A DNA stretch of 64,000 nt from contig JALOOU010000003.1 of assembly GCA_025454255.1 (NCBI GenBank), positions 16,585 through 80,584 on the forward strand. The letters are read 5' to 3'. This DNA is from Desulfobacterales bacterium. GTDB taxonomy: Bacteria; Desulfobacterota; Desulfobacteria; Desulfobacterales; SpSt-501. This document shows positions 6,861-59,210 of the stretch, one piece after another (the stretch's first letter is position 1; the number at the start of each line of letters is the position of its first letter). A model generated the notes under the pieces. That model ran no database searches and had not been told where the DNA came from. It was given only the letters and a program-made list of their open reading frames with translations. Made by a program: the position numbers and the translations under genes.

Positions 6861-9800
6861 TCAAAACAGCTTTAACTGGTCCGGGTTTTTCCGTTTGCCT
6901 CCCGCCCAGGGTTTTTCGTTTTTGAGCAGCCGCTCCTCGATCCGGCCCACGAAGGCCGATACCCGCCGCGGTTCGGGTCTACCGTAAACGCTGCGCTGCC
7001 GGGACCAGGTGAGATAGAGCCTCTCCTTGGCCCGGGTCATCGCCACGTAGAAAAGCCTGCCCTCTTCCGCCAGGTCTGCGAGGGCATCCTCCCCGGCCCC
7101 GCGCCGCAATGGAATCAACCCGTCCTCGCAGCCAGCGATAAAAACTACACTAAATTCCAAACCCTTGGACGCATGCATGGTCATCAGGGCCACTTTTTCG
7201 GCCCTGGGGTGGTAGCTGTCGGTGTCGCTGTGGAGGGCGATCCGCGTCAGCAAGCCGAGCCCGGAATCATCCGCCTCCTCGGCCGCCAGCAAAAGAAGCC
7301 GCTCCAGCGCCCCTTGAGCCTCTTGGCTGCCGAGATCCTCGGCCAGCTTCGGCAGCCGTGAAAGACGCCGAATTTTTTCCGCCGCCGTCTGCAGGCCGCC
7401 GGTCTCCTCGGACAACGCATCCAGCGCAGCGGCAAACTCCATCAGCCGGACCTGCTGACTGCGGCCGAGATTGGGAATCGGAAAACGCGCCGCCCGCACC
7501 AGCCCGTCGCGGACCCCCATCCGGTGGGTCAGGCACCAGCGCCTGAACTCCGCGAATATCTTTCGGCTCAGCGCCGGCGCGAGCACGCGCGCCCCGGCCG
7601 CCATGTCGGCGTAGGTCCCCGCACCGAGCACCAGCCTCGTCAAACTCAAAAGCGCGGCCACCCCCGGCAGTTCGAGGCTGTGCCGACGGCTGACCGCCTG
7701 GTATGGGATTCCCCTTTTTTTGAAAGCCTCCGCCACGAACCGGATTTGATCGAGCGTGCGGAAGAGGACCGCAACGTCAGCGAAGCTGGAGGCCGCCGCG
7801 CCGGACAGGCGTTTGACCCGCCCCGTGTCGATGGAGTGATATCCCGTTCCGCCCACCAGGGCTTCGACGGCGCGGGCGATGACCTCGGCTTCAGCCGCTT
7901 CGTTCGGCGCTTCGAGAACGCTCACGGTCCGGAGGCCGTCGATGTTCGAAAAGAGGCGCTGCGGTTGGGCCCCTTCGGCGCAGAGGACCTGGACCGAGGC
8001 GCTGAGGATGGTGTCGGTGGAGCGGTAGTTGCGGTTCAGTTCAATCTCGACGGCAGCGGGGTAGTCCCTTTTGAAGTTCAGAAAATAGGACGGGTCGGAC
8101 CCGCGAAAACCGTAGATCGCCTGATCCGGGTCCCCGATCACGCACAGCCAGCGCGCTCCGGCGCCCGGCGGCGCCAGGGCCCGGATGATCCGGTATTGGC
8201 CATGGTTCACATCTTGAAACTCATCCACGAAAACGGCCCGGAAGCGCTCCCTGCAGGCATCGCGAAAATCCGGATCCCTTTCCAGGCGGACGGCCACTTG
8301 GAAAATGAGCTCCTCGTAGTCATAAAGCCCCTGGCCCTGAAGAAGGCGCTGATAGGACCGGTAGACATCGGCGAGATCCGCGGCCGCCTGCTCGGCCCCG
8401 GGCCCCCCGGCCACCTCCTCGGGGGTCGACAGGTTCTGCTTGGCGTGCATGATGAGGCGCTGGAGCTCTTTGAGGGATTGACCGATGGGCCGACCCACCG
8501 AGGAGGCCGCTTCGGCCATCAACGCCGCCTGCAGCGGCTCGTCGGCGACGACGATGGGTCTGCCCGGCTCCATCGTCTGGAGGAGGCTCCAGCATAGACC
8601 GTGGAAGGTGACGGCCAGGGGCGGCGCCTGCCTTTCGCCCAACAGCGCCGACAGCCGCGAGCGCATTTCATCGGCCGCCTTGTGGGTGAAGGTGAGCGCA
8701 ACAATGTTGGCCGGCGCCACGTGGCGGTGCAAGACCAAAAAGGCGATCCGGCGGGTCAGAGTCCTGGTCTTGCCGGTGCCCGGCCCGGCCACGATCATGA
8801 GCGGGCCTTGCGCCTGCACGACCGCCCGACGCTGATCATCGTTCAACCCTTCGAGAAGACCTTGCGCATCGGGGCCATGCCCCCCCCCGGCGCCCACCGA
8901 CGGCGTTGGTTCACCGTCGCCCGGCGAAGAAACCGGCACTGCCGGCTCCTCGATCGAGGCGCGCAGCGGCCTGCCGCCGGTTTTGCCCGGCGCGTCGGCT
9001 GCGACGACGGTGAAAAGCGTTTTTTGGCCTATCAGCTGCGCGCGCTCCCCGGCGCTGAAGATCGCGACGGTGCCGTACTCGCCATCGAAGCCGGGGCGGA
9101 TATCCACTCTCTTCTCCCGCATGCGGCCGATGGCCTCGGCCAGCAGCGGGATCGGAAGCGCTGCGATCTGCTCCAGCTCGAGTTCCATGAGAACCGGCAG
9201 CTCCGGACCCAGCCGGTCTAAAACGGTGCGGCAGGCGTGGGCGACTTTCGCGGTTTTGGGCCCGGCTTGCAGGACCTCGGCCAATATGTCCGCCAGGGGG
9301 ATAAGGCTGAAGAAAAGGGGGGCGTGGTCCGGTCTTTTTCCTTCGGGCCGGTCGGCCAACTCCTCCACGCGGGACAGCACGCCGACGGTAACCGGTTTCC
9401 CGCAGGCCGGGCAGTTTCCGGCCAACCGCCGGGTCTCTCCGGGCGCCAGGCAAACCCCGCAGCCGCGATGTCCGTCCAGATGGTATTTGCCCTGCTCGGG
9501 GAAAAACTCGATTGTCCCCCTGAACCGCTCGGGATCTTTGGTTTTCAGGGCATCGCGCAGCGCAACGAAGGAGAGGTCGGCCTCGAGCAGGTTGGCTTCA
9601 CGACCGACATTGCCCGCTGAGTGGGCGTCCGAATTTGATATCAGGCAAATGGAATCCAGGCTTGACACGCGCCAGTTCATGGCCGGGTCGGACGACAGTC
9701 CGGTTTCGGCGGCAAACACATGCTCAGTTAGATCGCCGAAGCACTCAGCGATGGAATCGAAGCCGGACTTCGAGCCCAGGACCGAAAACCAAGGCGTCCA

Positions 9801-10295
9801 GATGTGAGCCGGGACGAGAAAAGCATCCGCTGAGGTCTCGAGCACGATCTCTAAAAGGTCGCGGGCGTCGAGGCCCAAGATGGGCCGGCCGTCGGAGGAG
9901 ATGTTTCCGATGGCCCCCAGCCGGGCGTTGAATCGACGCGCCGATGCGAGATCGGGCATGAACACCAGGTTGTGGTTTTTTCGGGTCCGGCCGTTTTTTT
10001 TGTAAATATTGCTGATTTCAGTGACGAGGACAAAACGGACCCGTCCCTGGCAGGCACGCGGTATTTCCGCTTCGACCCGACGCGCCGCCTCCTTTTTCAG
10101 CTTGAGCAGCCCCGGCTCTGCCTCATCCAGCTTGGCCTCTATTTCCGAGAACCAACCGGGATGTGCAAAATCACCGGTTCCAACCACACCGACCCCTTTT
10201 ACGCGACAGGCGGCGTAGAGGTTTTCAAGCGTTAACTCTCTGGATGTGGCCCTTGAAAACCTGGAGTGAATGTGAAAATCGGCCGTGATTTTCAT
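6861..10295 (-). CDS. endonuclease Q (PHP domain + Zn finger) fused to a UvrD/PcrA-type SF1 helicase
   Basis: N-term ADFHIHSRFS, GTGDFAHP, HIWTPWFS, ETGLSSD, SNSDAHS, GKYHLDGHRGC..CPACGK; C-term AGPGTGKT, VDEFQD, GDPDQAIYGFRG, NYRS, TMHASKGLEF, LFYVAMTRAK. Confidence 0.9.
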   Translation of the reverse strand: MKITADFHIHSRFSRATSRELTLENLYAACRVKGVGVVGTGDFAHPGWFSEIEAKLDEAEPGLLKLKKEAARRVEAEIPRACQGRVRFVLVTEISNIYKKNGRTRKNHNLVFMPDLASARRFNARLGAIGNISSDGRPILGLDARDLLEIVLETSADAFLVPAHIWTPWFSVLGSKSGFDSIAECFGDLTEHVFAAETGLSSDPAMNWRVSSLDSICLISNSDAHSAGNVGREANLLEADLSFVALRDALKTKDPERFRGTIEFFPEQGKYHLDGHRGCGVCLAPGETRRLAGNCPACGKPVTVGVLSRVEELADRPEGKRPDHAPLFFSLIPLADILAEVLQAGPKTAKVAHACRTVLDRLGPELPVLMELELEQIAALPIPLLAEAIGRMREKRVDIRPGFDGEYGTVAIFSAGERAQLIGQKTLFTVVAADAPGKTGGRPLRASIEEPAVPVSSPGDGEPTPSVGAGGGHGPDAQGLLEGLNDDQRRAVVQAQGPLMIVAGPGTGKTRTLTRRIAFLVLHRHVAPANIVALTFTHKAADEMRSRLSALLGERQAPPLAVTFHGLCWSLLQTMEPGRPIVVADEPLQAALMAEAASSVGRPIGQSLKELQRLIMHAKQNLSTPEEVAGGPGAEQAAADLADVYRSYQRLLQGQGLYDYEELIFQVAVRLERDPDFRDACRERFRAVFVDEFQDVNHGQYRIIRALAPPGAGARWLCVIGDPDQAIYGFRGSDPSYFLNFKRDYPAAVEIELNRNYRSTDTILSASVQVLCAEGAQPQRLFSNIDGLRTVSVLEAPNEAAEAEVIARAVEALVGGTGYHSIDTGRVKRLSGAAASSFADVAVLFRTLDQIRFVAEAFKKRGIPYQAVSRRHSLELPGVAALLSLTRLVLGAGTYADMAAGARVLAPALSRKIFAEFRRWCLTHRMGVRDGLVRAARFPIPNLGRSQQVRLMEFAAALDALSEETGGLQTAAEKIRRLSRLPKLAEDLGSQEAQGALERLLLLAAEEADDSGLGLLTRIALHSDTDSYHPRAEKVALMTMHASKGLEFSVVFIAGCEDGLIPLRRGAGEDALADLAEEGRLFYVAMTRAKERLYLTWSRQRSVYGRPEPRRVSAFVGRIEERLLKNEKPWAGGKRKNPDQLKLF

Positions 10296-10321
10296 AACCC
10301 TCTTTTTACAGAAAATAGAGC

Positions 10322-10390
10322 TTGAAAAATAATTATAAATCCGCTATATATTTACGTAATTTTTTCATTACCCCACATAGTGTGGTAATG
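10322..10390 (+). promoter_or_regulatory. putative sigma70 promoter and downstream imperfect inverted repeat in the divergent EndoQ-UvrD / rdgC intergenic region
   Basis: TTGAAA (10322-10327), 17 bp, TATATA (10345-10350); CATTAC-CCCACA-TAG-TGTG-GTAATG at 10366-10390; AT-rich. Confidence 0.5.
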
Positions 10391-10406
10391 TTTGGGAATT
10401 GTATTT

Positions 10407-11021
10407 ATGGGCATACTATCATCGTCCATGGCGATCACCCGTTACCGGGTCGAAGGCAAGCTTGCCGGGGCCGCGACGGAGGCTGTCCGTCGCGGCCTCC
10501 AAAAAAATGCCATCGCCGAGATCGACAACGAGGCCGAAGAGACCGCCACGGGCTGGACCTCTTTCGAGAGCCCTTTTTTCCCCAGCTTCGAGGGCTCCTC
10601 CTTCCTGTTTGGTCCCTTGTATGTTTTTTCCATGCGGGTCGATCGAAAGTCCGTCTCTGCCAAGCTCATCAGAAAACACCTTGGCATCGCCGTTGCCGAC
10701 CGGTTGGCTAAAACCAAAAAACAGTTTCTGTCCAAAGATGAAAAAACCGCGTTGAAAGAAAATGTGTTGAAAGACCTCCTGGTCAGGATGCCATCCACCC
10801 CCAGCGTCTATGACCTTGCATGGGACTATGAACATGCATCTGTGTTTTTCTTCTCCACTTTGCGCGCCGCCAATGAGAAGTTGGAAGGCCTTTTCAAACG
10901 ATCTTTCAATCTGGGGTTGATCCGGATATTTCCTTTCACCGCCGCCGACTCCCTGGCCGGATTGTCCGATTCCGAGAGGGATGTTCTGATCGGCCTCTCT
11001 TCTACACAGTTTTCGAGTTGA
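10407..11021 (+). CDS. rdgC: RdgC-like recombination-associated protein, N-terminal half
   Basis: ITRYRV..EETATGW..MRVDRKSV..LSKDEKTALKENVLKDLL pattern resembles RdgC N-terminal region; ATG at 10407. Confidence 0.72.
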   Translation: MGILSSSMAITRYRVEGKLAGAATEAVRRGLQKNAIAEIDNEAEETATGWTSFESPFFPSFEGSSFLFGPLYVFSMRVDRKSVSAKLIRKHLGIAVADRLAKTKKQFLSKDEKTALKENVLKDLLVRMPSTPSVYDLAWDYEHASVFFFSTLRAANEKLEGLFKRSFNLGLIRIFPFTAADSLAGLSDSERDVLIGLSSTQFSS

Positions 11022-11047
11022 TTTAAAGCGTCGACTACAGGCACCCC

Positions 11048-11581
11048 ATGCTCGATGTTTCCACAGCCTATCAACGTTACCGCTTTCTGGGCGACGAGTT
11101 TCTGACCTGGCTCTGGTTCTGCATCGAAAAAGATCAAAAGCTGTTCACCGCGGCGGATGCGGACTGCACCGCCCTTGAGATCGGCAACCGGATGGTTCTC
11201 GAAAACCGCAAGACCAAATCGGTCGAGCGCATCACCATCAAAGGAGACGATGCCGGCTTAGAGGAGGGGCGCCTTGCGCTGCGCAAGGGGGCTTTGGTTT
11301 CAGAAATGGCGCTGGTTTTCAAAACCGGGGAGTACCAGTGGCAGTTCAGTGTCAAAGGAGAATCCCTGAACATCAGCAACCTCAAGACGCCGGGAGCAAC
11401 GGCACCTCAAGGCCCGGAGCAGCTCGAACCATTTTTGTTGGAACGATTTGATTTTATAAATAAAATTATTTTTTTTATTGAAAATTTATACAAATTGTTC
11501 ATCCGTGCCCGCCTCTCGAGCCAGTGGGTGAGCAAACAGGTGCCTTCCATCCGGAAGTGGATCGAGGCAGCGGACGGCTGA
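11048..11581 (+). CDS. conserved protein resembling the C-terminal half of RdgC
   Basis: EFLTWLW and EEGRLALRKGALVSEMAL resemble the RdgC C-half (LTEW..EEITNHIEAGKVVTKLAL, recalled from E. coli); directly follows the N-half gene. Confidence 0.6.
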   Translation: MLDVSTAYQRYRFLGDEFLTWLWFCIEKDQKLFTAADADCTALEIGNRMVLENRKTKSVERITIKGDDAGLEEGRLALRKGALVSEMALVFKTGEYQWQFSVKGESLNISNLKTPGATAPQGPEQLEPFLLERFDFINKIIFFIENLYKLFIRARLSSQWVSKQVPSIRKWIEAADG

Positions 11582-11817
11582 ATGCGATAGGTTTGTTCAA
11601 ATGCGGACGATTGGGATCACAATAACCGGCGGGTTATCGACAACGCGGAAGGAACGGATCTAAAAATCCTCTATTCCGGAAAGAGAACCGAGCTTTTATT
11701 TACATCGTCATTTCTTTTTTTATTAAATAATTAAAAATAGTTATGTATTTATAAACATATTGACAGCCCACCTTCTCCTAACCATAACTTATCATTAACT
11801 GAAAAAGGGGAAATACA
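11582..11817. other. AT-rich intergenic region, candidate oriC and/or dnaN promoter
   Basis: TTATCGACA (11634-11642), tandem TTATAAACA-TATTGACAG (11749-11766), then CCC and CTT-CTC-CTA trio-like run; AT tract about 11711-11760; also TTGACA-N17-CATAAC. Confidence 0.5.
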
Positions 11818-15394
<3,577 letters not shown>

Positions 15395-15407
15395 GCCGGA
15401 TGGGACC

Positions 15408-16202
15408 ATGATGAAAATCCACCAGGTTTTTGCGCGCGACCTGCCCGATCTTTGGTTCCAAGCCGTGCACGACATTCTGGACCATGGCCGGCGGTTCGTC
15501 ATCGACCGCGGCTCCTATGCCGGCCAGACCCGCCTGGAGTATGACTTTTTCACCGGCCACGTCACCTACCCGGGCACCCAGCCGATCATCCCCGACATCC
15601 CGCCCGGCTGCGGCATCCCCAACCCGGTCGAACACGACTATATCTACGGCGGCCCCGGCTACGAGCGCGCCTACATCGAATATCTCATGTCCGCGCGCAA
15701 GGAGCCCGGAGAGTCCTACACCTATGGCGAGCGCCTCACGCGGGTGCCCATCACCGGCGACAAGCTCGCCTGGTGGCGAGCCGGCCACAGCGAGATCGTC
15801 GACCAGCGCGCGGTGGACGGGAAGGTGGTCTTCGAAGAGCAGGGGGGGCTTTATCTCAACCAGATCGAATGGGTGATCGCCACCTACAAAAAATTCGGCC
15901 ACCGCAACAACCAGATGGTGCTGCAGGTGGCGCACCCCTCGGACCTGACCCTGTTGGACCCGCCCTGCCTGCGCTCGATCGACACCCGCATCCAGGACGA
16001 GCGGCTGCATTTCGTCGTCTACTTCCGCTCCTGGGACCTGTGGAACGGGCTGCCCGCCAACCTTGCCGCGATCCAAAACCTCAAAGAGTATATGGCGGCC
16101 GAGATCGGGGTGCGGGACGGGGAGATGATCGTCGAAAGCAAGGGGCTGCACCTCTACGGCTACGCGGAGGATCTGGCCAAACTCAGGTGCCTGCGGACCT
16201 GA
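15408..16202 (+). CDS. thyA: thymidylate synthase (archaeal-type ThyA-like)
   Basis: YTYGERL, DPPCL (catalytic Cys), FRSWD, GLPANL, GLHLY. Confidence 0.8.
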   Translation: MMKIHQVFARDLPDLWFQAVHDILDHGRRFVIDRGSYAGQTRLEYDFFTGHVTYPGTQPIIPDIPPGCGIPNPVEHDYIYGGPGYERAYIEYLMSARKEPGESYTYGERLTRVPITGDKLAWWRAGHSEIVDQRAVDGKVVFEEQGGLYLNQIEWVIATYKKFGHRNNQMVLQVAHPSDLTLLDPPCLRSIDTRIQDERLHFVVYFRSWDLWNGLPANLAAIQNLKEYMAAEIGVRDGEMIVESKGLHLYGYAEDLAKLRCLRT

Positions 16203-30225: not shown

Positions 30226-33200
30226 TCAATTGAGCAATTCGCGCCACCACCGATAGAAAAAGTTATTGGACGGCATCAGCGGGGCCATGCGCACCACGCC
30301 CGCTGCGAATGACTCCGAATCCTCGTCCGCGTTGGTGCTGCCGACCGAAATCAGCAGTTTACTGAGGCTGTCGGTGATCACCGGGACCGCCCTGGACGGT
30401 ATCCCGCCGCCGATCGCCACCGATCTATCCCGGGTGGCATCGTTGTTGAAATCCAACACCGGCGCCGCTGTCTTGTAATGGAGTGCATACAGGTGCGCAT
30501 AGCCGCCGGGCACGCAGGGGTCGCTGTTCGGCTGCAAGGTGGTCAGGTAGACCGTCTTGAAAAAAACCAAGCTTTCGCTGAGAACTTTTTCGCCGGGGCC
30601 GAGCTGCAGAAACCAGCCCTGGTCCCTGCGGCCATTGCCGTCCGCGTCTGCCGCCAGATCATCCAGGCAGGGCGGGGTCGTCGAGGCGCTGGTGACATCG
30701 ACCAGGTCGGCTTCCGTAAGTGAGACCGTCTCGTGCCGGTCGCGGATGACATAAAATCGGTCGGAGGCAGATGGCGAGCAGGGATCCTCGCGGTCTCCGG
30801 AGCCGATGAAGAGGAGGTCGTAGCCCTTCTCCAGCGTCAACGCCGGCGGATAGAAAAATTTCCGGGGAAAAGAGCCGTCTGCTGAAAATAGGATTCGCGC
30901 CTCCCAGTTCATGATGTTTTCGTCGCAATCGGGGAACGGAAGCGAAACGTTCGCGGAGGTGGTAAATTTGCCGAAACGCCACAGCCGTCCTCCGAGATCG
31001 CCCACATAGACCTTGTCCACGAACCCGTTGTCATTCGCATCGAAAAGGGCCACCGAGCTGGGGATGGCGAAGTTCATGCCGAGCAGCGAGCCGTCGTTTT
31101 TAAAAACTCTGACCGCGGCGCCGCTGAAAACGCTGATGGCCAGAACGGCCCTGCCGGAAGAGTTGTCCGGGCTGAAGCCGCCCCCGATGAAAAACACGGG
31201 GGTACCGACGGTATCGAGATCCGATGTCTTCACCACGCCGAACTGGGGCTCGGACCAGCTCTGGCCCAGCTCAGGGATCACCAGGCTCGGGGCTACCGGG
31301 CCGCTGCTGTCGGGAGCGATCCTCCAGAGAAAATGCGGGTTGTCGGGATCGGTGATGTCCAGGGCAAAGTAGCTGCTGCCGCCCTTTCGTTCACCGCACA
31401 CCAAAACCACCCGGTCGCCGGGGTCGATGAGGCCGTTTTGGTTGATGTCCATGAAATAGACCTTTGGGCTGGCATCGACGTAATAGGGGTGGCTGCCGCC
31501 TTCGATCACCGCTTTGAGGCGGGGGAGCAGGTCGGGCGGTATGAAGGCCCACGCCTCGGTTCCGTAATGGACGGCGCTGGTGCTGTTGGCGGCGATGGAC
31601 TCGTCGTAGACCGCGTGCAACATTCCGTCGTTGGACCCGAAAAACACGTAGCTCTTTGTGCTGCCGTCGGGATAGCTGTAGCGGAACACCGAGGGCTCGC
31701 TGTGGAGGATGTCCCCGGTTATGATCGCCCGGTTCTCGGACCTGTTGCCGTCTGCGTCCTCGTCGAACTCGTCTGCTCCTCGAATGTAGTCGATCACCTG
31801 TGCGGTCGTATGCGCCGGGCTGCCGAGGACGGCGGCGGTGAGGCGCGGATTGGCGGCGGAGAAGCGGTTTTCTGAATCCAGCAGGCGCGTGGCCGCTGCA
31901 CCCAAATACGTACAGATGATGCGGTCGGCATGGTGGATGTAATTGCTTTTGCCGGGGGTCGCCCAATCCTTGGTTTGCCAATATGGAAGGGCTTCGTTGC
32001 GAATCGCTCCATTCGGCCAGGTGGCGTACGCATTGTTTTTGTCTACGATTTCCAGATTCGGCGAGAGTGCGAATTTGGTGAGATTGCCCTCCCAGAAATT
32101 GGATTCGCCCGGTTTGAAGAACGCCATGTAGATCCGGTTGCCGCTGGTGGTCCGGGTCACCGGAACGACCGGCGCGGTGAACGAGTTGGTTTGCGATATG
32201 ATATCCATGACCGCTGACAGAATGGCGGTCGCCAACTGGTCCGGGTTTTCGGCGACATAGTGGTATTTTCCGTAGTACTTATCGGCGGAGTCATAGAGGT
32301 TCAGCTTCCCGTTTCCATTGTTCGAGGTGTTGATCAGGAAGAGATTGTTGAGCACATCGCCCATGAAGCCGACCGTATAGGTCCGCAGATTCTGCAGACC
32401 GGGTCGATAGCCGACGACATCCCGCGTGTAGAGGGCATAGGCGACATCGTCCAGGTGGGTCGACCCGTTGCGATTGACCGGGATGTCGTAGATCGAGAGG
32501 TCTTTTTTTATTTTTCCCTCGCCGATGCCGCTCTGGTCGCCATCGTAGTCCGAGAACGAGGAGGGGAAAGAGCCTGCGGCCGGGCTTTGATCTTCGGAGG
32601 AAAGCCCTGGTGACACCACCAGGGCGAAGTTTTCGGTGCAATAGGTCGCCACCACCTGAGAGGAGGGTGAATTGTAGTAGCCTCCTATGGTGGCCAGCCC
32701 CTCGGCCAGCGGCGAGTAGGTCACGGTCCCCATGTTGTTGATGTTGTTGATGTAGTTCGAATCAAGGATGTTGTCGGCCGGGTCGGCGGCCAAGGGGGGG
32801 GCGACCACGAGCCCCAGCGGCTGCACGCGGCTGGCACCGCTGGCGTTGGCGGTGAAATTGTAGATCGAAAACTGCGCCCGGTTGGCGGCAAGCTTTGCGA
32901 CCGTCATCAGGGCCTTCTTGGCGTAATAAAAGCGCGTTTTACCCGGCAAGTCGGAGCCCGATCCGCTGTAGGGGCCATAGAAGATCCAATTCAGATAATT
33001 CCGCGAATATCTGAAATTGGCGGCCTTATCGATGACGCCGTCCACGGTGTGGTTGGCGGGTACGGCCGGCAAAGCGATGCTGCGGTTGTTGATCGTCCAG
33101 ACCGGCGATTTGCCGTCCCCGTCGGCCATGCGCTGAAACTGGCTGTCGGCAATGACCAGGCTGTCCGGGATTTCCGCTAGATAATATTTGCCCCCTCTCA

Positions 33201-33510
33201 CCGTTGTCGCGTAGCCCTTGTCCCGGCAGAATCCGATGCCGCCCGGAGAATTCTGAACGACGTCGGTGCAGTTCGACGGAGTATGGCTTGCGCTGTTGTT
33301 GTACAAGGGATGCCAGGTGATCTCCTCCATGGAGGCGCCGTTGTCCAAAAGGATGACGATGTTCGGGGGGACGTCGTCGGCCGTCGTGGCGAACACACAG
33401 GTATCGTCGGTCCGGGCGGTGCCGGTCATGCCGAGGATCGCCAGGGCCATTGCCGCCATGCGGATGGATTGGATAAGATTCATCGATCTCACCTGTCGGC
33501 CGCGCATCAA
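30226..33510 (-). CDS. pilY1: type IV pilus tip adhesin PilY1/PilC, copy 1 (start may be 33483)
   Basis: signal peptide, vWA-like PPNIVILLDNGASM, GDILHS, GSNDGMLHA, EAWAFIP, YYVDASP, DANDNGFVDKVYVGDLGG. Confidence 0.9.
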   Translation of the reverse strand: MMRGRQVRSMNLIQSIRMAAMALAILGMTGTARTDDTCVFATTADDVPPNIVILLDNGASMEEITWHPLYNNSASHTPSNCTDVVQNSPGGIGFCRDKGYATTVRGGKYYLAEIPDSLVIADSQFQRMADGDGKSPVWTINNRSIALPAVPANHTVDGVIDKAANFRYSRNYLNWIFYGPYSGSGSDLPGKTRFYYAKKALMTVAKLAANRAQFSIYNFTANASGASRVQPLGLVVAPPLAADPADNILDSNYINNINNMGTVTYSPLAEGLATIGGYYNSPSSQVVATYCTENFALVVSPGLSSEDQSPAAGSFPSSFSDYDGDQSGIGEGKIKKDLSIYDIPVNRNGSTHLDDVAYALYTRDVVGYRPGLQNLRTYTVGFMGDVLNNLFLINTSNNGNGKLNLYDSADKYYGKYHYVAENPDQLATAILSAVMDIISQTNSFTAPVVPVTRTTSGNRIYMAFFKPGESNFWEGNLTKFALSPNLEIVDKNNAYATWPNGAIRNEALPYWQTKDWATPGKSNYIHHADRIICTYLGAAATRLLDSENRFSAANPRLTAAVLGSPAHTTAQVIDYIRGADEFDEDADGNRSENRAIITGDILHSEPSVFRYSYPDGSTKSYVFFGSNDGMLHAVYDESIAANSTSAVHYGTEAWAFIPPDLLPRLKAVIEGGSHPYYVDASPKVYFMDINQNGLIDPGDRVVLVCGERKGGSSYFALDITDPDNPHFLWRIAPDSSGPVAPSLVIPELGQSWSEPQFGVVKTSDLDTVGTPVFFIGGGFSPDNSSGRAVLAISVFSGAAVRVFKNDGSLLGMNFAIPSSVALFDANDNGFVDKVYVGDLGGRLWRFGKFTTSANVSLPFPDCDENIMNWEARILFSADGSFPRKFFYPPALTLEKGYDLLFIGSGDREDPCSPSASDRFYVIRDRHETVSLTEADLVDVTSASTTPPCLDDLAADADGNGRRDQGWFLQLGPGEKVLSESLVFFKTVYLTTLQPNSDPCVPGGYAHLYALHYKTAAPVLDFNNDATRDRSVAIGGGIPSRAVPVITDSLSKLLISVGSTNADEDSESFAAGVVRMAPLMPSNNFFYRWWRELLN

Positions 33511-34022: not shown

Positions 34023-34427
34023 TTAGTCCTCATGTTTAATGAAGGCGATGTTAACCTGGTTTTGGCTTGGCCCTGAGGGCAGGAGTTTTTTCCAGGCCAC
34101 GGCCAGGTCGACGGTTTTCGATTCAAAGATGCCGTCCGCGTTCAGATCCGTTTCGACCACGGTCCAGCGGATCAGATATTTTCCAGAGGATTTCGAATGC
34201 GGGTTGGATGCCGGGTCAAGCTCGCTGTGCAGGAAGGGCAACCGCAGGATGACTTCCATCTGGCTGGATGCCAGCTGGGATGCGTGGCTGATTTCGGCCG
34301 AAGCCCGGCTGCTCATATGGGCGGATACCTGAAGCGCGGCGACGGCCAGCAACCCGATCGCCAAAATCGACAAAGTGATCTGGACTTCAATTAGGCTGAA
34401 GCCTGCCTGCGCTGAAATTCGCCGCAT
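34023..34427 (-). CDS. pilV: minor pilin PilV, copy 1
   Basis: QAG/FSLIEVQITLSILAIGLLAV prepilin motif; start at 34427 inside a longer track ORF. Confidence 0.85.
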   Translation of the reverse strand: MRRISAQAGFSLIEVQITLSILAIGLLAVAALQVSAHMSSRASAEISHASQLASSQMEVILRLPFLHSELDPASNPHSKSSGKYLIRWTVVETDLNADGIFESKTVDLAVAWKKLLPSGPSQNQVNIAFIKHED

Positions 34428-34456
34428 CGATCCGTTTTTCTCCTTGGCCGCGCAGC

Positions 34457-35083
34457 TCACATCGAAAGGTTGCGGATGAAAACGCTTTTCGTTGCCGTTC
34501 GCACGACGCGTCGATTGAAACCCGACGGCTGGGCGATGGTCAGCGAGATCTCCACCGACCGTATGCGCGCGAGGTCGGCAATGGGAAAGCTCAACAACAT
34601 CCCGTTTTCGTCGAAATACCGAAGCTGCAGGTCCGCCACATGATTCGCCACCGTGTCCCATGACTCGTTCGGCGTCCCCTCGGAAAGGCACTGCCACAAA
34701 CGTTTGGTGGCCGAGTCGTAGGCATAGGTAATCCTTTCGAGGTCCCCTTCCTGAATCCCATCGGAAAGATCGGCTGCGTTGATGGCGCCATCCAGATTGC
34801 GGTCCGCCGTGAATCGGATGGCGATAGCCGAGGCCGCCTCGATCCCGGCGTCTGCGGTACCGAAGCGGTCCAAGCCCGCCATGCGGATGTCCGCCTCCAT
34901 GTAGCCGAGGCTTGTCCGCAGATGGTTCATCACCTCGGCCGTGACCTCGTTGTCGGTGTTCGATTTTGCGGCCGAGGCGAAGACGGCATAAATGGAACCC
35001 AGTGCGAGGCTGACGATCGCCATGACGATCAACAGTTCGATCAGGCTGAATCCGCATTGTCGTCTGCATGTGAGCGGTGTCAT
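34457..35083 (-). CDS. pilW: minor pilin PilW, copy 1
   Basis: QCG/FSLIELLIVMAI, MEADIRMAG. Confidence 0.85.
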   Translation of the reverse strand: MTPLTCRRQCGFSLIELLIVMAIVSLALGSIYAVFASAAKSNTDNEVTAEVMNHLRTSLGYMEADIRMAGLDRFGTADAGIEAASAIAIRFTADRNLDGAINAADLSDGIQEGDLERITYAYDSATKRLWQCLSEGTPNESWDTVANHVADLQLRYFDENGMLLSFPIADLARIRSVEISLTIAQPSGFNRRVVRTATKSVFIRNLSM

Positions 35084-48670: not shown

Positions 48671-48805
48671 ATGAAGCGAACGTTTCAGCCCAGCAGGATC
48701 AAGCGCGCCCGCAACCACGGATTTCGAAAACGCATGTCCACCAAGGCCGGGCGTGCGGTCATCAACCGTCGACGCGCCAAGGGGCGTAAGCGTTTGGCCG
48801 GCTGA
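48671..48805 (+). CDS. rpmH: 50S ribosomal protein L34 (below ORF-track cutoff)
   Basis: translated by hand: [44 protein letters not shown]. Confidence 0.97.
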
Positions 48806-48862
48806 GCCGGCGCATCCCGAGCGGATGCGCTCGCCGCCTCCCCCCCCTGAGGATCCCGAGCG

Positions 48863-49216
48863 GTGCGCTTTTTCCTGAAAAAGGCCGACCGGATTTTAAA
48901 GCGCAGCGATTTTGTCGAACTTACGCGGGTCGGGCGGCGGGTCTACAGCGGGGTTTTCATGGCGGTGGTGGCGCCCAACCGCGCCGGCCGGCCCCGTTTG
49001 GGGGTTACCGTAACGCGCAAAGTGGGCCCAGCGGTCCAGCGCAACCGCATCAAGCGTCTCGTGCGCGAAGTCTTCCGGCTGCATCGCCAAAAAGTGAAGC
49101 TTGACGGGGACATCAATGTCATTGCCCGCAGCGGGGCCGCCAGACTCACAAACCATGACCTGAGGCAGGCCATCGAGGAGTTGTTTGAAAGCGTTCCGAG
49201 GCAAATCGGCGGTTAG
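48863..49216 (+). CDS. rnpA: ribonuclease P protein component
   Basis: RLGVTVTRKVGPAVQRNRIKRLVRE (RNR motif); position after rpmH. Confidence 0.93.
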   Translation: MRFFLKKADRILKRSDFVELTRVGRRVYSGVFMAVVAPNRAGRPRLGVTVTRKVGPAVQRNRIKRLVREVFRLHRQKVKLDGDINVIARSGAARLTNHDLRQAIEELFESVPRQIGG

Positions 49217-49433
49217 CCATCTATCCGCGCGTCTGCTCCATTGGATCATCCGGGCCTATCAGTTGACGCTCTCCCCGGTCCTGGGTCCGGCATGCCGTTA
49301 TTATCCATCCTGCTCGGAATACACCCTTCAGGCCATCGCCCGCCACGGACCGACCCGGGGCACACTGTTGGGCGTCAAGCGCGTGATGCGCTGTCATCCA
49401 TTCAGCGCCGGCGGAGAGGACCCGGTCCCCTGA
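49185..49433 (+). CDS. yidD: membrane protein insertion efficiency factor (start uncertain)
   Basis: YQLTLSP..CRYYPSCSEY..RCHPF..GGEDPVP. Confidence 0.9.
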   Translation: MKAFRGKSAVSHLSARLLHWIIRAYQLTLSPVLGPACRYYPSCSEYTLQAIARHGPTRGTLLGVKRVMRCHPFSAGGEDPVP

Positions 49434-49513
49434 AATCATGGGGCGAAGGCTGTGTCCGGGTGTTTTTTCACCGGGGCTGAAAACAAAAAGGCTATTTCTC
49501 TCAGGAGATCGAA

Positions 49514-51160
49514 ATGGATCAGATGCGCTTGATGGCGGCCCTGGTGCTCTCTTTTGTGGTTTTCTTTCTTTGGAACTCGTTTTTCGCGCCCGAAACGCCG
49601 CCCAAGACCGCTCCTAAGCCGGAGATCGCCGCTGAAAAGATGCCTGACGCCCCGCCTCCATCCGTGGTGGAGGGATCCACGGCGCCGGCGCTATCGGCTG
49701 CGCAACCTGCCGCCGCACCAAGCAGAGTCGCGCGCGAAATCACCGTCCATGCGCCCCTCTACACCGTCGGGTTGTCCGAGAAGGGGGCGGTCATAAACCG
49801 CTTCGTACTCAACAACTACCGCCTCAACGTCGAAAAAGACTCCCCGCTTCTGAACCTCTTTCCGGATGACGGGTCGGTCGGCTCACTTCAACTGGGCGCT
49901 GCGGGGATCCCCGGCCTCGAAGAGGCGCTCTTCCAGGTTCAGGGTGCGAGCGATTCGATCGATTTCACCGAGGGGTCGCGGGAGGTCGTCTTCGCCTATC
50001 GCACGGCAAACGGGCTGCTGGTCGAAAAGATCTACCGCTTCATGGCCGACTCCTATGTGATGGGCTTCGATATCCGCATCACCAACGCCGGCGAGCAGGC
50101 GGTGAAGGAGGTTTTCTCCGTCGCGCTGCGTGAAGCGACCTCCGGAAAGAAGAGCTCCTACGTCTTCGAAGGGCCCAGCGCCTTGATCAACAATTCCCTG
50201 GAAACGGTCGAAATCGGCGACATCGCCAAAAACAACACCCTAAAAGGCAAAATCACCTGGGCCGCGATTCAGACGCGCTATTTCATGACCGGCCTCATCC
50301 CGCTCAAGGAGCAGGAGACCGTGCTGAGGCTCTCTGTTTTGCCGGGAAACGTCGTGGAGGCGCGCTACGAGGAGCCCGAAGTCCTGCTCCCCCCCGGAAC
50401 CCGGCAGAGTTTCGACCATCTTCTCTTCTTTGGACCTAAAAGCAGCGAAGCCCTCAGCCGGGCCGGCCATGAGCTGATCCGGGTCATCGATTTCGGCACG
50501 TTCCATTTTCTCGCCAACCCACTGTTATTGCTAATGAATTGGATTTACGGGATCCTGCCCAACTACGGGGTGGCCATCATCATCCTGACGATCCTCACCA
50601 AGGTCCTGCTCTGGCCGCTCGGCACCAAGAGCTACAAGTCCATGAGCCAGATGAAAAAACTTCAGCCGCTGATTCAGGAAATCCGCCAAAAGTACAAAAA
50701 CGATCGCAAGCGGATGAACGAGGAGGTCATGCGGCTGCACCGCACCTACAACATCAACCCTCTGGGCGGGTGTCTGCCCATGGTGCTTCAGATCCCGGTC
50801 TTTTTCGCCCTCTACCGGATGCTGGACTCGGCCATCGAGCTGCGGCATGCCCATTTCCTGTGGTGGATCAACGACCTCTCCGCCCCCGACCGGCTTTTCA
50901 ACTTTGGCTTTTCAATTCCCTTCATGGAGCCGCCCTACGGGATACCGGTGCTGACGCTGGTCATGGGCGCCACCATGTTCCTGCAGCAGAAAATGACCCC
51001 GCCGGTCGGCGATCCCACCCAGGCCAAGATGATGATGCTCATGCCGGTGGTCTTCACGTTTATTTTCATCAACTTTTCCTCCGGCTTGGTGCTTTACTGG
51101 CTGATCAACAACGTGCTTTCGATCGGCCAGCAATACTACACCCAGAAAAAGTTCGGTTGA
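49514..51160 (+). CDS. yidC: membrane protein insertase YidC
   Basis: NYGVAIIILT, KSMSQMKKLQP, NPLGGCLPM, WINDLSAPD, GLVLYW. Confidence 0.96.
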   Translation: MDQMRLMAALVLSFVVFFLWNSFFAPETPPKTAPKPEIAAEKMPDAPPPSVVEGSTAPALSAAQPAAAPSRVAREITVHAPLYTVGLSEKGAVINRFVLNNYRLNVEKDSPLLNLFPDDGSVGSLQLGAAGIPGLEEALFQVQGASDSIDFTEGSREVVFAYRTANGLLVEKIYRFMADSYVMGFDIRITNAGEQAVKEVFSVALREATSGKKSSYVFEGPSALINNSLETVEIGDIAKNNTLKGKITWAAIQTRYFMTGLIPLKEQETVLRLSVLPGNVVEARYEEPEVLLPPGTRQSFDHLLFFGPKSSEALSRAGHELIRVIDFGTFHFLANPLLLLMNWIYGILPNYGVAIIILTILTKVLLWPLGTKSYKSMSQMKKLQPLIQEIRQKYKNDRKRMNEEVMRLHRTYNINPLGGCLPMVLQIPVFFALYRMLDSAIELRHAHFLWWINDLSAPDRLFNFGFSIPFMEPPYGIPVLTLVMGATMFLQQKMTPPVGDPTQAKMMMLMPVVFTFIFINFSSGLVLYWLINNVLSIGQQYYTQKKFG

Positions 51161-51198
51161 CGACGCCTCCCCCGAACCGGGGTGGGGCTTTGCATGCC

Positions 51199-52593
51199 AT
51201 GGATGATTCCACTATTGCCGCCGTGGCCACGCCGCCCGGAAGCGGCGGAATCGGTATCATCCGCGTCTCGGGCCGCAATGCGATCCCCATCGCCGCCGCG
51301 CTCTTCAGAGCCTCCCTGGCCGGTACCGGCACGAAACCGCCGCGGAGCCAGTTTGAATCCCACCGCCTTTATCACGGTTATGTAGTCGATCCCGCCGGCG
51401 GCCGCGTCATGGACGAGGTCCTATTGTCGGTCATGATCGCCCCCCGCTCCTACACCCGCGAGGATGTGGTCGAGATCAATGCTCACGGCGGCCATCAAGC
51501 CGCCCGGGCCATCCTCGAGCTGGTGCTGAACCAAGGGGCGCGGCTGGCCGAGCCGGGCGAGTTTACGCGGCGGGCCTTTCTCAACGGGCGTATCGATTTG
51601 ACCCAGGCCGAGGCTGTCTGCGACCTGATTCAGGCCCGATCGCAGCGCGCTTTGGAGGCCGCGGCCGCTCTGCTGACAGGCGGGCTTAAATTAAAAATAC
51701 AACAAATACAAAATGTTATAAATGATATTCAAATCGCGATCGAGGCTGCTATCGATTTTCCGGAAGAGGTTGCCCTCGACGCCGAGAACCTGAAGCGCCG
51801 GATCAGCGAGGATGTGATCGCCCCCTTGCAGGCGCTCATCCGAAACTGCATCGCCGGGCGCACGATTCGAGAGGGCCTATCGGTAACCATCATGGGCCGC
51901 CCCAACGTGGGCAAGTCCAGCCTGATGAACCGGCTGCTGGCAAAGGATCGTTCGATCGTAACGGATCTGCCCGGTACCACGCGCGATGTGGTTCAAGAAA
52001 GCACGGCCATCGAGGGTGTCGTCTTTCATCTCCAAGACACGGCCGGGTTGCACCGAAGCCCGGACCCGGTGGAGAGCATCGGGATGGCTAAAGCCATAGA
52101 GAGCGCCGACGAGGCGGACCTGGTTCTGCTGGTGGTGGAGGCCCATCGGCCGGTCGGCCCGGAGGATATTCGAATTTTCGAACTGGTCGGTACCAAGCCG
52201 TGCATCGTCGCGCTGAACAAGAGCGACCTTCAAAGCGGCCCGGCCGCCTGCCCGGATCTGCCTGAAAGCTGGCGCGCGAACCGCTGCCTTGCCGTTTCGG
52301 CCCTCACGGGAGAGGGGATCGAAGCGCTGCGGGCGCAGTTGCACCAAGCGGCAGTCGGCGGCGCTGCGAAAAGCCTCGGGGAGCTGATTCCCAACCTGCG
52401 CCAAAAAGGGTTGATGGAGCGCTGTCTCGCAGCGGCCGCCGCCGCCGCGCAAGATCTTGCCCGGCAAGCGGCTCCGGAGCTGGTTGCGGTCAATATCGGG
52501 CTGGCGGCCGATTGCCTGGGCGAATTAGCGGGGACCCATGCCAAGGCGGACATTCTAAATGGCATCTTCGAACGGTTCTGCATCGGTAAATGA
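51199..52593 (+). CDS. mnmE: tRNA modification GTPase MnmE (TrmE)
   Basis: TIAAVATPPG, PRSYTREDVVE, GRPNVGKSSL, PGTTRD, DTAG, C-term FCIGK. Confidence 0.96.
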   Translation: MDDSTIAAVATPPGSGGIGIIRVSGRNAIPIAAALFRASLAGTGTKPPRSQFESHRLYHGYVVDPAGGRVMDEVLLSVMIAPRSYTREDVVEINAHGGHQAARAILELVLNQGARLAEPGEFTRRAFLNGRIDLTQAEAVCDLIQARSQRALEAAAALLTGGLKLKIQQIQNVINDIQIAIEAAIDFPEEVALDAENLKRRISEDVIAPLQALIRNCIAGRTIREGLSVTIMGRPNVGKSSLMNRLLAKDRSIVTDLPGTTRDVVQESTAIEGVVFHLQDTAGLHRSPDPVESIGMAKAIESADEADLVLLVVEAHRPVGPEDIRIFELVGTKPCIVALNKSDLQSGPAACPDLPESWRANRCLAVSALTGEGIEALRAQLHQAAVGGAAKSLGELIPNLRQKGLMERCLAAAAAAAQDLARQAAPELVAVNIGLAADCLGELAGTHAKADILNGIFERFCIGK

Positions 52594-55137: not shown

Positions 55138-58100
55138 CTAAAAGTTCATTTCCATCCAGTAGGATACGCCCAGCAGGGGCGATTTGGCATGGATCAGGGC
55201 GATCTCGCCGCTCGAGGAGCTCAGATACATGCCGTCGCTCCCGGGCAGCTTGAGAATGGCGGGCGAGTGGATGTTGCCCGAATTGCCCACCCCGGAGGGG
55301 GCCCAGTCGCTTGGAAGCCCGCTGAGGCTCAGGAGGTCTTTTTCGTCGATTTTGCGGTCGCCGGTTATGTCGAAAACCCCTCCGCCGGAGTAGCCCCCGG
55401 TAAAGGCGTTGATGGCCATGAACATGGAGTCGCCCCCCGGTCCGCAGCGGTCGCTGTTGGGGGTGAAGCCGATGGCCAGCAGCAAACGGTCCCGGATGAC
55501 GACATCGCTGATCACGCGCTCGCCCGGGGGCAGGTCCAGGTAGAACCCGCCGTGGTTGGCTTCGGTGCTGCTCAAGTCGGGTTTTTGGGCGGTGGGGTCG
55601 TTTGCGTCCGGCATGGTGATCCAGGAGGGCTTTTGGTTCGAGAGCATCCGAAACATCCGCTCTTCGGCGCCGATGGCAACCGTGCGGTCGGTCAGGGTCT
55701 GCTGCAGCAGAGTCACGGCGGCAGGCTGGTTGGAGAGCTGCGGGCTTGCGCCCCGATCGAAGGCCCCGAGGAACTCCTCATTGTCATCCGGGCTCCAACT
55801 CCTCTTTCTCAAGTCGTAGAACCGGTCGCCATAGTCCCAGATCCCGTAGATCGTCTGCGTGCTGTTGTCGGCCTGGTCCCACTCGCCCAGATATTTCCCG
55901 GTGCCGAAACAGACCATGTACCCGTGCTTTTTGGGGTGGAACATCACGTCGGGCTTGGTGGTGATCGGCTGCAGCGCCCCCCCCGGGCCCCTGGCCTGGA
56001 AGAGCGGCTGGCGCTCCCCGTTTTTGAAAAAAGCCACGTCCCAGGCGCCGGGGTCGCTGCCGGTGAGGTCGAATTTCCAGAGGTTACCCTTGAGATCGCC
56101 GGCATAGACGAAATCCACACGGCCGTCGCTGGAGACGTCGACGGCGATCGGGTGGGACATCCCGTTGTCCGGGCCTGCGCCGGCAACGATTTTCCTGATC
56201 AGGGAGCCGTCCCGGGGGTCGACGACGTAGAGCGCGGAGACGCCGCTTTCGCTGTTGTATCCGTTGCCGAAGATCACCGCCCATGGTTCGCTTCCGCCCC
56301 GCAGCGTTTTGACGATGACCGGCTTGCTGAAGGAGTAGCCCATGTCGGGGTCGGCGGTCTGCGGAAACTCCCACAGGACGCGGCTCGCCAGAACGCTTTC
56401 CGAGTCGATCTGGGCCTTGGCCGCGGTAATGTCGAGGGCGAAGTAGCCCTTGCCGCCTTTGCGCAGGCCGCCGACCAGCAGCGTCTTGGGGTTTTCGAGC
56501 GTCCCCCCCAAAATGTCGCCCCTTTTGACCGTGGGGGTGAGGTCGACATAGAACCGGTGGCTGTAGTTGGTTTCGGTCAGGAGCTTGAGGTTTTCGAAAA
56601 CAAGGTTGGGGACGTAGGCGAAAAGCTCTTCGCCGCTCCTGGCGTCGAAGGCATGCAGCATGCCGTCGTTGCCCCCGGAGTAGACCACGTCGTCCATGAA
56701 AACCGGGGCGGAGCTCACGATGTCGCCCAGTTTCTGCGAGCGGTAGCGGTATCCGCTGACCTCCCCTCCCCGCAGGTACATGACCTTGTCGGCCGGCTCG
56801 GCGCCCAAAGCCGTTTTTTGGGCCGCCGACAGATTTTCCTCGCGGAAAGGTATTCCGGCGGCACCGTTGAATGTGGCGATGAGCCGCGCTTCCCACCCTT
56901 TCGATTCCAGTTTTTCGGCCGCGGACCACCCCTTGGGGTCGCTTTTTTTCAGCTGGCCGGTAACGGGATCGACCGGAAAGGCCTTTATGTCGCCCGCCCA
57001 CTCGTCGTTCTGGTTGCTGTAGAGGGCCTGGTAGAGCAGCGTGTCGGGCCCGGCCTTGGCGTAGAGGTAGTCGCCGTTGACCGTCACCGAAGAGGAGGAG
57101 GCGATCAGGATCTCGCCGATGGCCTCCATCAGCTCGTTCAGCGCATTGGTCAATTCGATGGGGTTTTGGGCGCTGTAGAACCGCCCCCGGCCGTTGACGG
57201 CCGCGTGCCAGAGGTCGTCGACCGTGGTCGCCGCGTAGGCATCGTCCACCTTGGGCCATACGATCGGCAGGCCGGTGGTCTTGTGCTTGAGCTCCGCGTC
57301 GTAGTGGTTCGGGTTGAGCGTCCCGCTCACCCCGAAGGCGACGCTGTAGACGGCCAGGTGTTGGTGCTGGGCCTTGTCGTAGCGGCTCTTGGGGACTTCG
57401 TCGGGCAGCGAGGCATTCAGATCGGTGGCATAAAAATACATCGCGAAGTCGGCCAGCGTGTTGGAGTAGGCGTCGGCATAGGGGTGGCCCTTGTCGCCGT
57501 CGCTGTTGCCCGCAAGCGTCGTGGTCAGGTCGTTGTAAAAACCATCCGTGAAAAGCACCGCAAACGACTGCTGGCACGAACCGCCCTCCGCGAGGGTGCC
57601 GTAGGGCTTTGGCCCGCTGACGCCGGCCAGGACCCCCGTGTTGTCCTTGAAGTAGTTGCCGACCGTTTTGAGCCCGCCTTTGAGGGGCGTGCCCCCGTAG
57701 GATTGGTAGGCGTAGATTTTTTCGATGAGCAGATTGGTGTTGTCGCTGATCGCGGCGCCCTGCTTGACCTTGATGTCCGCCAGCGGCTGGACGATGGTTT
57801 GGTTGATGCCGTAAATTCCGACCCTCACCTCCGCCAGATCTTTCAGGATTTTGGCAAGGGCGTTCTTGGCGACATACTCGCGCCGGCGGTGGTAGGTGAA
57901 CCAGTTGGCGAAGTTCTGGCGCTCCTCATCATAGCTTCGGCCCGAATCGAGGCCTGCGGGCAGCGCGCCGACCGGCGCCAGGCCGGAGATCTTTTCTTCG
58001 AGGCCATCCAGGACCGTTGATATTTCATAATATTTTTTAGTGCTGGTGGCGCTGTCGAGCACCACCAGATATTTTTTGTTTTCGGCCGGGTCGAAGAGCG

Positions 58101-58671: not shown

Positions 58672-58694
58672 GGCTCTCTCCGTTTCGATATCGA

Positions 58695-59210
58695 TTAGTA
58701 GGCCGCACGATAGCCGACGCGCACGATCGAGACCCCATCCCACTCGCAGCGGCCGTAAATGGAAAGATTGTGAATCTTGGGTTTGTCCGGGTCCAGGCTC
58801 TCCCCCGGGGCGATCCCCTCGACGCCGGCTACGTACTGGGCGCGGACGGGATCTATATGCGAATTATGGAAAGGGGTGGTGCTGGACGTCAGCAGCGTGT
58901 TGCGGACGGAGGGATCTTTGAAATACTCCCTGACGTTTTCGACGGTCAGCTCCCCTGTCAGCGTATCGACCCACACCGGCATGCCGCTTTTGAGGTTGGC
59001 GATGTTTTCCAATTCGTCGATGGCCTCGATGGCCGCACCCTCGGCGAGGTAGAAGTTGCGGTGATAGAGGATCGCGTTGCGGGACATGGCGGCCTCCGTG
59101 TTGGCCACCTGCGAGGCCGAAATGCCGATGATGGTGATCAACACCAGAATGACCAGGGCGGCAAGTATCGCCATGTACCCCTCTTGCGACTTCAACCCGG
59201 GAGCTGTCAT
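58695..59210 (-). CDS. pilX: minor pilin PilX, copy 2
   Basis: QEG/YMAILAALVILVLITIIG (no Glu5), NFYLAEGA. Confidence 0.85.
   Translation of the reverse strand: MTAPGLKSQEGYMAILAALVILVLITIIGISASQVANTEAAMSRNAILYHRNFYLAEGAAIEAIDELENIANLKSGMPVWVDTLTGELTVENVREYFKDPSVRNTLLTSSTTPFHNSHIDPVRAQYVAGVEGIAPGESLDPDKPKIHNLSIYGRCEWDGVSIVRVGYRAAY

Follow-up and report, generated by a model that had tools for sequence, protein, structure and literature searches.

Does a bacterial protein that joins an EndoQ-type nuclease to a UvrD-type helicase nick and unwind damaged DNA at the replication clamp, and does the position of its gene opposite the clamp gene dnaN reflect such a role? The question is raised by a stretch of 64,000 nucleotides (the window) from a Desulfobacterales bacterium (contig JALOOU010000003.1, positions 16,585 to 80,584), in which a single gene encodes an EndoQ-UvrD fusion. 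We lean towards the view that this protein, recruited to the clamp, makes a nick at deaminated or abasic sites and unwinds the DNA there. The original prediction had proposed such a single-polypeptide pathway together with a functional gene cluster around it. The pathway stands as the best inference from the anatomy of the protein, its residues, the conservation of its motifs and a weak complex prediction, whereas the functional cluster does not.

The fusion protein and its clamp-type motifs

The predicted union of an EndoQ-type nuclease with a superfamily 1 (SF1) helicase in one protein of 1144 amino acids was confirmed by an uninterrupted open reading frame (ORF) and by profile and fold matches. 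The parts of the gene are as follows:

6861 to 10295, minus strand: EndoQ-UvrD fusion gene, 1144 amino acids (single uninterrupted ORF; Pfam and TIGR profiles; AlphaFold2 model)
9036 to 10295, minus strand: EndoQ domain, residues 1-420 (PfuEndoQ alignment, conservation in 144 sequences, fold match to 5zb8/7k30)
9012 to 9026, minus strand: internal clamp-type motif QKTLF, residues 424-428 (occupies the site of the C-terminal motif of stand-alone EndoQ)
8868 to 9011, minus strand: linker, residues 429-476 (sequence-variable, predicted disordered)
6912 to 8867, minus strand: UvrD/PcrA-type SF1 helicase, residues 477-1128 (Walker A, DEFQD, motifs III-VI)
7818 to 7853, minus strand: family-specific Gly-Gly insertion in the helicase, residues 815-826 (a gap in M. 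tuberculosis UvrD1; also in the partner helicases of split forms)
6864 to 6878, minus strand: C-terminal clamp-type motif QLKLF, residues 1140-1144 (translation, conservation)

Translation placed both motifs where they had been predicted, QKTLF lying at the boundary of nuclease and linker. The AlphaFold2 model (70 sequences) had a mean predicted local distance difference test score (pLDDT) of 88.8, with low confidence only at residues 424-473 and at the extreme C-terminus, and it matched both EndoQ and UvrD/PcrA structures in the fold search. Both motifs sit in low-confidence, likely exposed segments of this model, QKTLF marking the start of the segment 424-473.

The nuclease half (residues 1-420) covered the whole TIGR00375 profile with an E value of 1.5e-51 and 176 bits, below the cut-off of 326.6; by this score it is a homologue outside the cut-off of the model. 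Its match to PfuEndoQ (5zb8/7k30) had an E value of 3e-49 and a TM-score of 0.88 by target length. The two-zinc PHP site is kept, with H8, H10, E76, H84, H139 and D193 of PfuEndoQ corresponding to H8, H10, E93, H108, H164 and D223, and R114 and H195 correspond to R137 and H225. The lesion pocket and wedge are kept as well (W144, G169, L170 and S171; here W169, G199, L200 and S201). According to passages of PMC5961232, mutation of the mapped PfuEndoQ residues abolishes or lowers activity. The mutation-sensitive positions (H8, H10, E93, H108, R137, H164, W169, G199, L200, D223 and H225 in the fusion) are conserved in 135-144 of 144 aligned sequences. A zinc site is predicted at H276, C279, C295 and C298, the histidine being present in 142 of the 144 sequences and the three cysteines invariant. 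The claim of an intact EndoQ-type PHP/Zn-finger nuclease thus held for the catalytic residues, while the zinc site turned out to be a His-Cys-Cys-Cys variant and not a C4 site.

Residues 484-1099 matched the Pfam models UvrD-helicase and UvrD_C above cut-off, and the helicase of the fusion has intact motifs I-VI and the four-subdomain fold. Five of its residues (K509, D691, E692, R758 and R1088) are conserved in 143-144 of 144 aligned family members, and G815 and G816 of the insertion in 139 each. UvrD/PcrA helicases unwind DNA in the 3'-to-5' direction, driven by ATP. Against the PcrA model TIGR01073 the fusion helicase scored 366 bits compared with a cut-off of 911, and the match stopped at profile position 641-649 of 725. 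The last ~75 positions of the PcrA/UvrD profile hold an RNA-polymerase-binding Tudor domain, as described in part of PMC6511836. Since the match stops at 649 of 725, this domain appears to have been replaced by the terminal clamp motif. Judged by profile cut-off and by the C-terminal Tudor domain, the fusion helicase is not a PcrA/UvrD orthologue. Among the 61 genomes of the order no PcrA match exceeded the TIGR01073 cut-off, the matches ending near position 630-665 of 725, and most of these genomes also carry a second, stand-alone UvrD-like gene. The stand-alone paralogue of the present genome (contig C124, 35831-38029) likewise ends short of the Tudor region, and in this assembly it seems to carry a frameshift ahead of motif V.

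To assess the clamp-type motifs, the terminal pattern Q[LMI]x[LM][FL] and the junction pattern Qxx[LM][FL] were compared with random helicase windows, in which they occurred at background frequencies of 1.3% and 3.2%, respectively. The set of 119 close homologues included 112 with a complete helicase and 117 with a locatable junction. The cluster set held the 129 of 150 50%-cluster representatives longer than 900 amino acids, of which 112 were complete and 127 were scored at the junction. Both motifs proved to be conserved among close relatives, the terminal one in 111 of 112 and the internal one in 115 of 117; the corresponding counts for cluster representatives were 94 of 112 (loose pattern) and 71 of 127. 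Fusions from other orders (40 in total) carried the terminal motif in 30 of 33 cases and the internal one in 19 of 40, and 13 of 20 short EndoQs from these orders end in a motif. The terminal QLKLF is close to the consensus QL[SD]LF, and only 3 of 4662 closed six-frame ORFs of at least 300 amino acids in the genome end in QxxLF. The internal QKTLF is looser and is significant only through its conservation, because 0.14 internal QxxLF motifs are expected by chance per 1144 residues. A 327-residue open frame elsewhere in the genome (contig C121:19930-20910) also ends in a QxxLF-type motif and is a possible further clamp client.

The origin of the two motifs is indicated by the split forms, in which a partner helicase stays directly downstream of EndoQ. 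At all five intact split loci examined (L107, L162, L164, L165 and L167), a motif closes the EndoQ sequence, and the adjacent UvrD with the family insertion is motif-tailed as well; two loci with short ORFs and a UvrD nearby (L120 and L182) look broken and were set aside from this count. As each split half ends in its own motif, the two motifs of the fusion are the tails of its two halves.

PMC4858679 describes bacterial EndoQ homologues as carriers of a beta-clamp motif and reports that the C-terminal motif of archaeal EndoQ mediates stimulation by PCNA. Its Supplementary Figure S1 contains 44 motifs, 34 at residues 941-1244 and 10 at residues 401-464, including those of Desulfobacterium autotrophicum (1152-1156) and Desulfobacter curvatus (1084-1088). 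Judged by length, the long homologues in that figure very likely belong to the same family as the fusion. The terminal motif of bacterial EndoQ homologues of ~1,000-1,240 amino acids was already published there in 2016.

Structure prediction of a complex between DnaN and residues 1-440 of the fusion, which had been suggested as a check, gave a score of 0.41 compared with 0.07 for the best control, with no interface returned. Contact agreement between runs was at least 84%, and the pLDDT of the partner was 88. Of the solved pairs 116 of 157 attained the score mark, as did 2 of 215 mismatched ones; at scores of 0.60 or below, however, only 18 of the 157 solved pairs attained it, together with both mismatches. 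Given the missing interface and the many clamp-peptide complexes among solved structures, this prediction is a modest nudge only; it lends weak support to a docking of the 1-440 region on DnaN.

A proposed nick-and-unwind pathway

In the pathway that we favour, the fusion would dock on the beta clamp (DnaN) through its QxxLF motifs, and the EndoQ half would cut immediately 5' to a uracil, hypoxanthine or xanthine base or to an abasic site, a range taken from PfuEndoQ and Bacillus pumilus EndoQ. Bacterial EndoQ from B. pumilus and B. subtilis is reported to nick at uracil, hypoxanthine and abasic sites (passages of PMC5961232 and PMC8307549), and EndoQ is described in part of PMC4858679 as cutting 5' of the lesion and leaving a 3'-OH and a 5'-phosphate. 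With a cut at this position, the downstream strand would carry the lesion at its 5' end. The helicase, with the polarity known for UvrD/PcrA, could then track 3'-to-5' on the intact strand, so that the lesion is raised in a 5' flap and a primer stands ready, after which Pol I and ligase would account for flap removal, fill-in and sealing. The clamp tags would thereby place nick-and-unwind repair on newly replicated DNA.

The relation of such a pathway to other repair systems can be judged from the gene content of the genome, which is 87% complete. The original prediction had asked whether ung, mutS and nucS are absent: three UDG-family matches and MutS were found, and NucS gave no match. From their motifs we take the UDG-family genes to be one family-4-type uracil-DNA glycosylase (UDG) and two SMUG1-like genes. 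The latter (C175:1750-2610 and C89:6613-7323) are very similar to each other, which may reflect duplication or bin contamination. A role for EndoQ as a stand-in for a missing UDG or MutS was rejected, both being present; EndoQ therefore adds to glycosylase repair and does not replace it.

Several observations weigh against the proposed pathway. Uracil is already covered by the UDG-family genes, and the first zinc ligand is a histidine where the C4 site of PfuEndoQ has a cysteine. The quick tree and the loci described below indicate that the helicase was lost several times while the nuclease stayed, so the coupling of the two activities is not obligatory. The internal motif departs from QL[SD]LF, with L, M or I at position 2 in 3 of 117 fusions among close relatives and 14 of 127 among distant ones, compared with 10 of 11 motif-bearing stand-alone EndoQ tails; this drift suggests a weaker or dispensable site. 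Fusions that lack it altogether number 56 of 127 in the distant set and 21 of 40 in the other orders, and it may therefore be dispensable. Of the two tags, the terminal one is probably the principal site, and the internal one probably a weaker remnant kept from the original tail of the nuclease. A more elaborate version of the pathway, in which the two tags fill the two pockets of one DnaN dimer, the nick is handed from nuclease to helicase behind the fork without a glycosylase, and the head-to-head position with dnaN in Desulfobacterales is kept for co-production, seems unlikely to us.

Helicase-less EndoQ copies without a five-residue clamp motif were observed at L045/L196, L075, L100, L101, L108, L198, L163, L170 and L174. 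Eight such copies placed in the tree nest among fusions, which suggests repeated joint loss of helicase and tag; another helicase-less copy (L052/L195) retains the internal motif. The tree was built by a quick method, was midpoint-rooted and omits L052/L195, L075, L120 and L182; hence it cannot tell whether separate halves fused or a fusion split.

These losses could also mean that the halves act largely apart, the helicase being a general clamp-tagged UvrD-like motor in nucleotide excision or mismatch repair, or in the clearing of forks or RecA, with fusion serving co-expression only. Such a motor would fit the order's 61 genomes, none of which has a PcrA over the cut-off, and the separate tags of the halves in split loci. 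However, most genomes hold a second UvrD-like gene that stands alone, and the EndoQ-linked helicases share an insertion absent from UvrD1 and, when split, stay directly downstream of EndoQ. We consider independent action of the halves improbable and retain the coupled nick-and-unwind enzyme as the preferred reading.

Gene neighbourhood

The gene for the fusion is transcribed divergently from five genes, as originally described, all of them on the plus strand and head-to-head with it:

10392 to 11021, plus strand: rdgC N-half, likely start ATG 10407 by family consensus (Pfam RdgC over cut-off; 2owl profile match, E 1.9e-4)
11048 to 11581, plus strand: rdgC C-half (predicted fold only; no sequence match)
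11818 to 12933, plus strand: dnaN, beta sliding clamp, predicted binding partner (TIGR00663 over cut-off)
12956 to 15394, plus strand: gyrB, neighbour (TIGR01059 over cut-off)
15408 to 16202, plus strand: thymidylate synthase, ThyA fold, housekeeping neighbour (best model the methanogen-type TIGR03283, below its cut-off)

Linkage of EndoQ, DnaN, RdgC-N and ThyA was scored in the same 60 relatives. The distance from EndoQ to dnaN is at most 4 kb in 20 of the 21 genus genomes that have both, the lone exception being at a contig end, and in 16 of 30 genomes of other families in the order, five of these without rdgC in between. Among the remaining 14, six are clearly unlinked (G031, G038, G041, G043, G045 and G049); the other eight could not be called, in several cases owing to contig ends. 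The thyA gene is found no more than 11 kb from EndoQ in 15 of 18 genus and 12 of 24 other-family genomes. Beyond the order, 60 of 109 matches in the same phylum were sampled (40 fused and 20 short; 4 kb or more of upstream sequence was available for 50), and dnaN, gyrB, rdgC or thyA neighboured none of the 60; the same was true of the 21 loci assigned outside the order by their titles, 14 of which had at least 4 kb upstream. The synteny with dnaN therefore extends beyond this genome, but not outside the order.

The original prediction had read this arrangement as a cluster of clamp, uracil-control and anti-recombination genes, and a selected, co-regulated module of EndoQ-UvrD, dnaN, split rdgC and thyA would agree with the linkage within the order and with the five loci directly head-to-head with dnaN. 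It did not hold up, and we regard it as very unlikely. Linkage is confined to one order, in which at least six genomes are unlinked, and it survives loss of the helicase and the motif: five helicase-less copies still face dnaN, four of them motif-less (L100, L101, L108 and L198, which fall in at least three places of the quick tree) and one motif-bearing (L052/L195). In G030, a genome that is 97% complete, the rdgC-N/C-dnaN-gyrB-thyA block is present with no EndoQ match. A gene for a lytic transglycosylase (SLT), which is unrelated, is an equally steady neighbour (23 of 80 EndoQ loci, compared with 26 of 80 for dnaN). Together, the SLT neighbour, the dnaN linkage that outlives helicase and motif, and the EndoQ-less block in G030 favour inheritance over function. 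A functional cluster was rejected on the basis of these motif-less copies, G030 and the counts of 0/60 and 0/21, and the head-to-head place beside rdgC-N/C-dnaN-gyrB-thyA is most likely an inherited gene order of Desulfobacterales. A point against simple inheritance is that EndoQ and dnaN are directly head-to-head in five families, so that the pairing outlasts rdgC; selection for co-expression of clamp and client may act within the order.

The proposed split of rdgC was borne out by sequence for the N-half and by predicted fold for the C-half, and both halves are found in one ORF in 6 of 20 loci examined. Searches with the C-half gave no meaningful sequence match, the nearest being a weak Atlas lead with one cluster set of 12% RdgC, and the top three PDB matches of its model were all RdgC (E 9e-4 to 2e-3). 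This half was found in 34 of 81 phylum genomes; it has no Pfam model and is recognised through its fold only. An RdgC-family protein of ~380-420 amino acids is encoded by one gene in some Desulfobacterota and by two adjacent genes in others (L207, L208, L214, L217, L220 and L221). The rdgC halves are neighbours of the fusion, and the linkage data do not support a role for them in the repair pathway.

The thyA gene encodes the only thymidylate synthase found in the 87% complete genome, in which ThyX had no match. The enzyme has an insertion of ~38 amino acids (about residues 110-148) that is absent from forms of ~220 amino acids in G030, G033, G051 and G057 (L222-L225). Two-piece matches in these four genomes had raised the possibility of a split thyA, which was rejected: they are single ORFs of ~220 amino acids that lack the insertion.

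The window also contains yidC and mnmE (Pfam) in a block at 48680-52593, ~33 kb from dnaN-gyrB, and we take the ORFs ahead of them to be rpmH, rnpA and yidD. Both rpmH-rnpA-yidD-yidC-mnmE and dnaN-gyrB are classic origin-proximal housekeeping genes. The distance between the two groups, with dnaA on another contig (C59, 18816-20240), suggests a rearranged origin-proximal region. The contig has a weak minimum of cumulative GC skew near window position 13-18 kb. An oriC in the gap between rdgC and dnaN found no support: this gap has no perfect match to the DnaA-box pattern used, no cluster of three boxes was found in the genome, and dnaA lies on C59. The gap before dnaN (11582-11817) is AT-rich, and visual inspection shows a TTGACA/TTAACA-like hexamer in many relatives, ~55 bases ahead of the start. 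This hexamer is possibly a promoter element, but was not picked up by the promoter scan, which was at chance level (2 found, 1.6 expected). At four loci (L049, L054, L071 and L089) a gene of ~500 amino acids with an apparent signal peptide lies between rdgC-C and dnaN. Elsewhere in the window there are two genes with PilY1 domains (30226-33510 and 55138-58743) and two long ORFs without a Pfam match at E 1e-5 (34023-35069, 348 amino acids; 61471-63798, 775 amino acids).

The family was present in 55 of the 61 genomes of the order and in 113 of 161 genomes of the phylum, with about 6,600 stretches estimated in the genome collection, and it was found in 1 of 72,556 plasmids and 0 of 50,697 phages. 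Its spread is chromosomal and housekeeping-like. An anti-phage role, in which the enzyme would attack uracil-containing phage DNA by nicking and unwinding and would escape inhibition by Ugi, would accord with the suggestion, in passages of PMC8307549, that Bacillus EndoQ may serve antiviral defence and is not inhibited by Ugi, and with the nuclease and UvrD pairs of known defence systems, PADLOC GajB models matching the helicase part; nevertheless such a role is hardly probable given the near-universal presence in the order, the fixed chromosomal place, the single plasmid and absence from the phages searched, the clamp tags that point to host replication, and the 25 of 51 PADLOC matches listed, which cover the generic UvrD part only and include none for the rdgC halves or thyA. 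Membership in Gabija or another defence system was rejected, as the matches listed were to generic UvrD only and the location is not mobile.

Comparison with known systems

The closest characterised relatives of the nuclease half are the archaeal EndoQ proteins that work with PCNA (PfuEndoQ PF1551 and TkoEndoQ; 5zb8, 7k30-7k33), as described in parts of PMC4357722, PMC4858679 and PMC5961232. The fusion resembles them in its PHP and pocket residues, in its fold (TM 0.88) and in the clamp-type motif that directly follows the nuclease, within a disordered tail. It differs in its helicase fusion and its additional motif at the C-terminus, in its QxxLF motifs in place of a PCNA-interacting peptide (PIP) box and in the histidine at the first position of the zinc site.

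Among bacterial proteins, the Bacillus EndoQ of Shiraishi (2017) is reportedly a stand-alone nuclease. The B. pumilus and B. subtilis enzymes are similar to the nuclease half in being bacterial EndoQs with reported nicking at uracil, hypoxanthine and abasic sites. Passages of PMC5961232 state that the 2017 work distinguishes three EndoQ families on the basis of domain organisation, so the fusion may already be described in it; in the literature searched we found no experimental study of an EndoQ-UvrD fusion. The long bacterial homologues in Fig. S1 of PMC4858679 are listed with one motif per protein, unlike the two described here; the word "helicase" is absent from the main text of that paper, and the bacterial proteins were not assayed there.

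The helicase half is most similar to the SF1A helicases UvrD, PcrA and UvrD1 (2is6, 4c2t, 3pjr and 9dci), with which it has all core motifs and the fold in common (the best UvrD/PcrA matches gave TM-scores of 0.83-0.86 by target length). Unlike them, it does not match the last ~75 profile positions, is motif-tailed and carries the family-specific insertion. The split RdgC is a distant relative of the E. coli (2owl) and P. aeruginosa (2owy) proteins; its N-half matches them by sequence and its C-half by predicted fold, but it is encoded by two genes and measures about 380 amino acids in total, compared with about 303.

The gene cluster itself adds little to these comparisons, and EndoQ-UvrD fusions as such had been catalogued earlier; the contribution of this window is the order-restricted, most likely inherited position beside dnaN and the confirmed split of RdgC. 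For archaeal EndoQ the step after the nick is still presented as a model, either strand displacement or removal by a helicase (PMC4357722, legend of Fig. 10), and the use of the beta clamp by bacterial EndoQ was left as an open question in 2016 (passages of PMC4858679). Because nuclease and helicase are naturally fused here and carry two clamp tags, the post-nick step and the use of the clamp can both be tested in one protein, whose cognate DnaN is encoded by a neighbouring gene.

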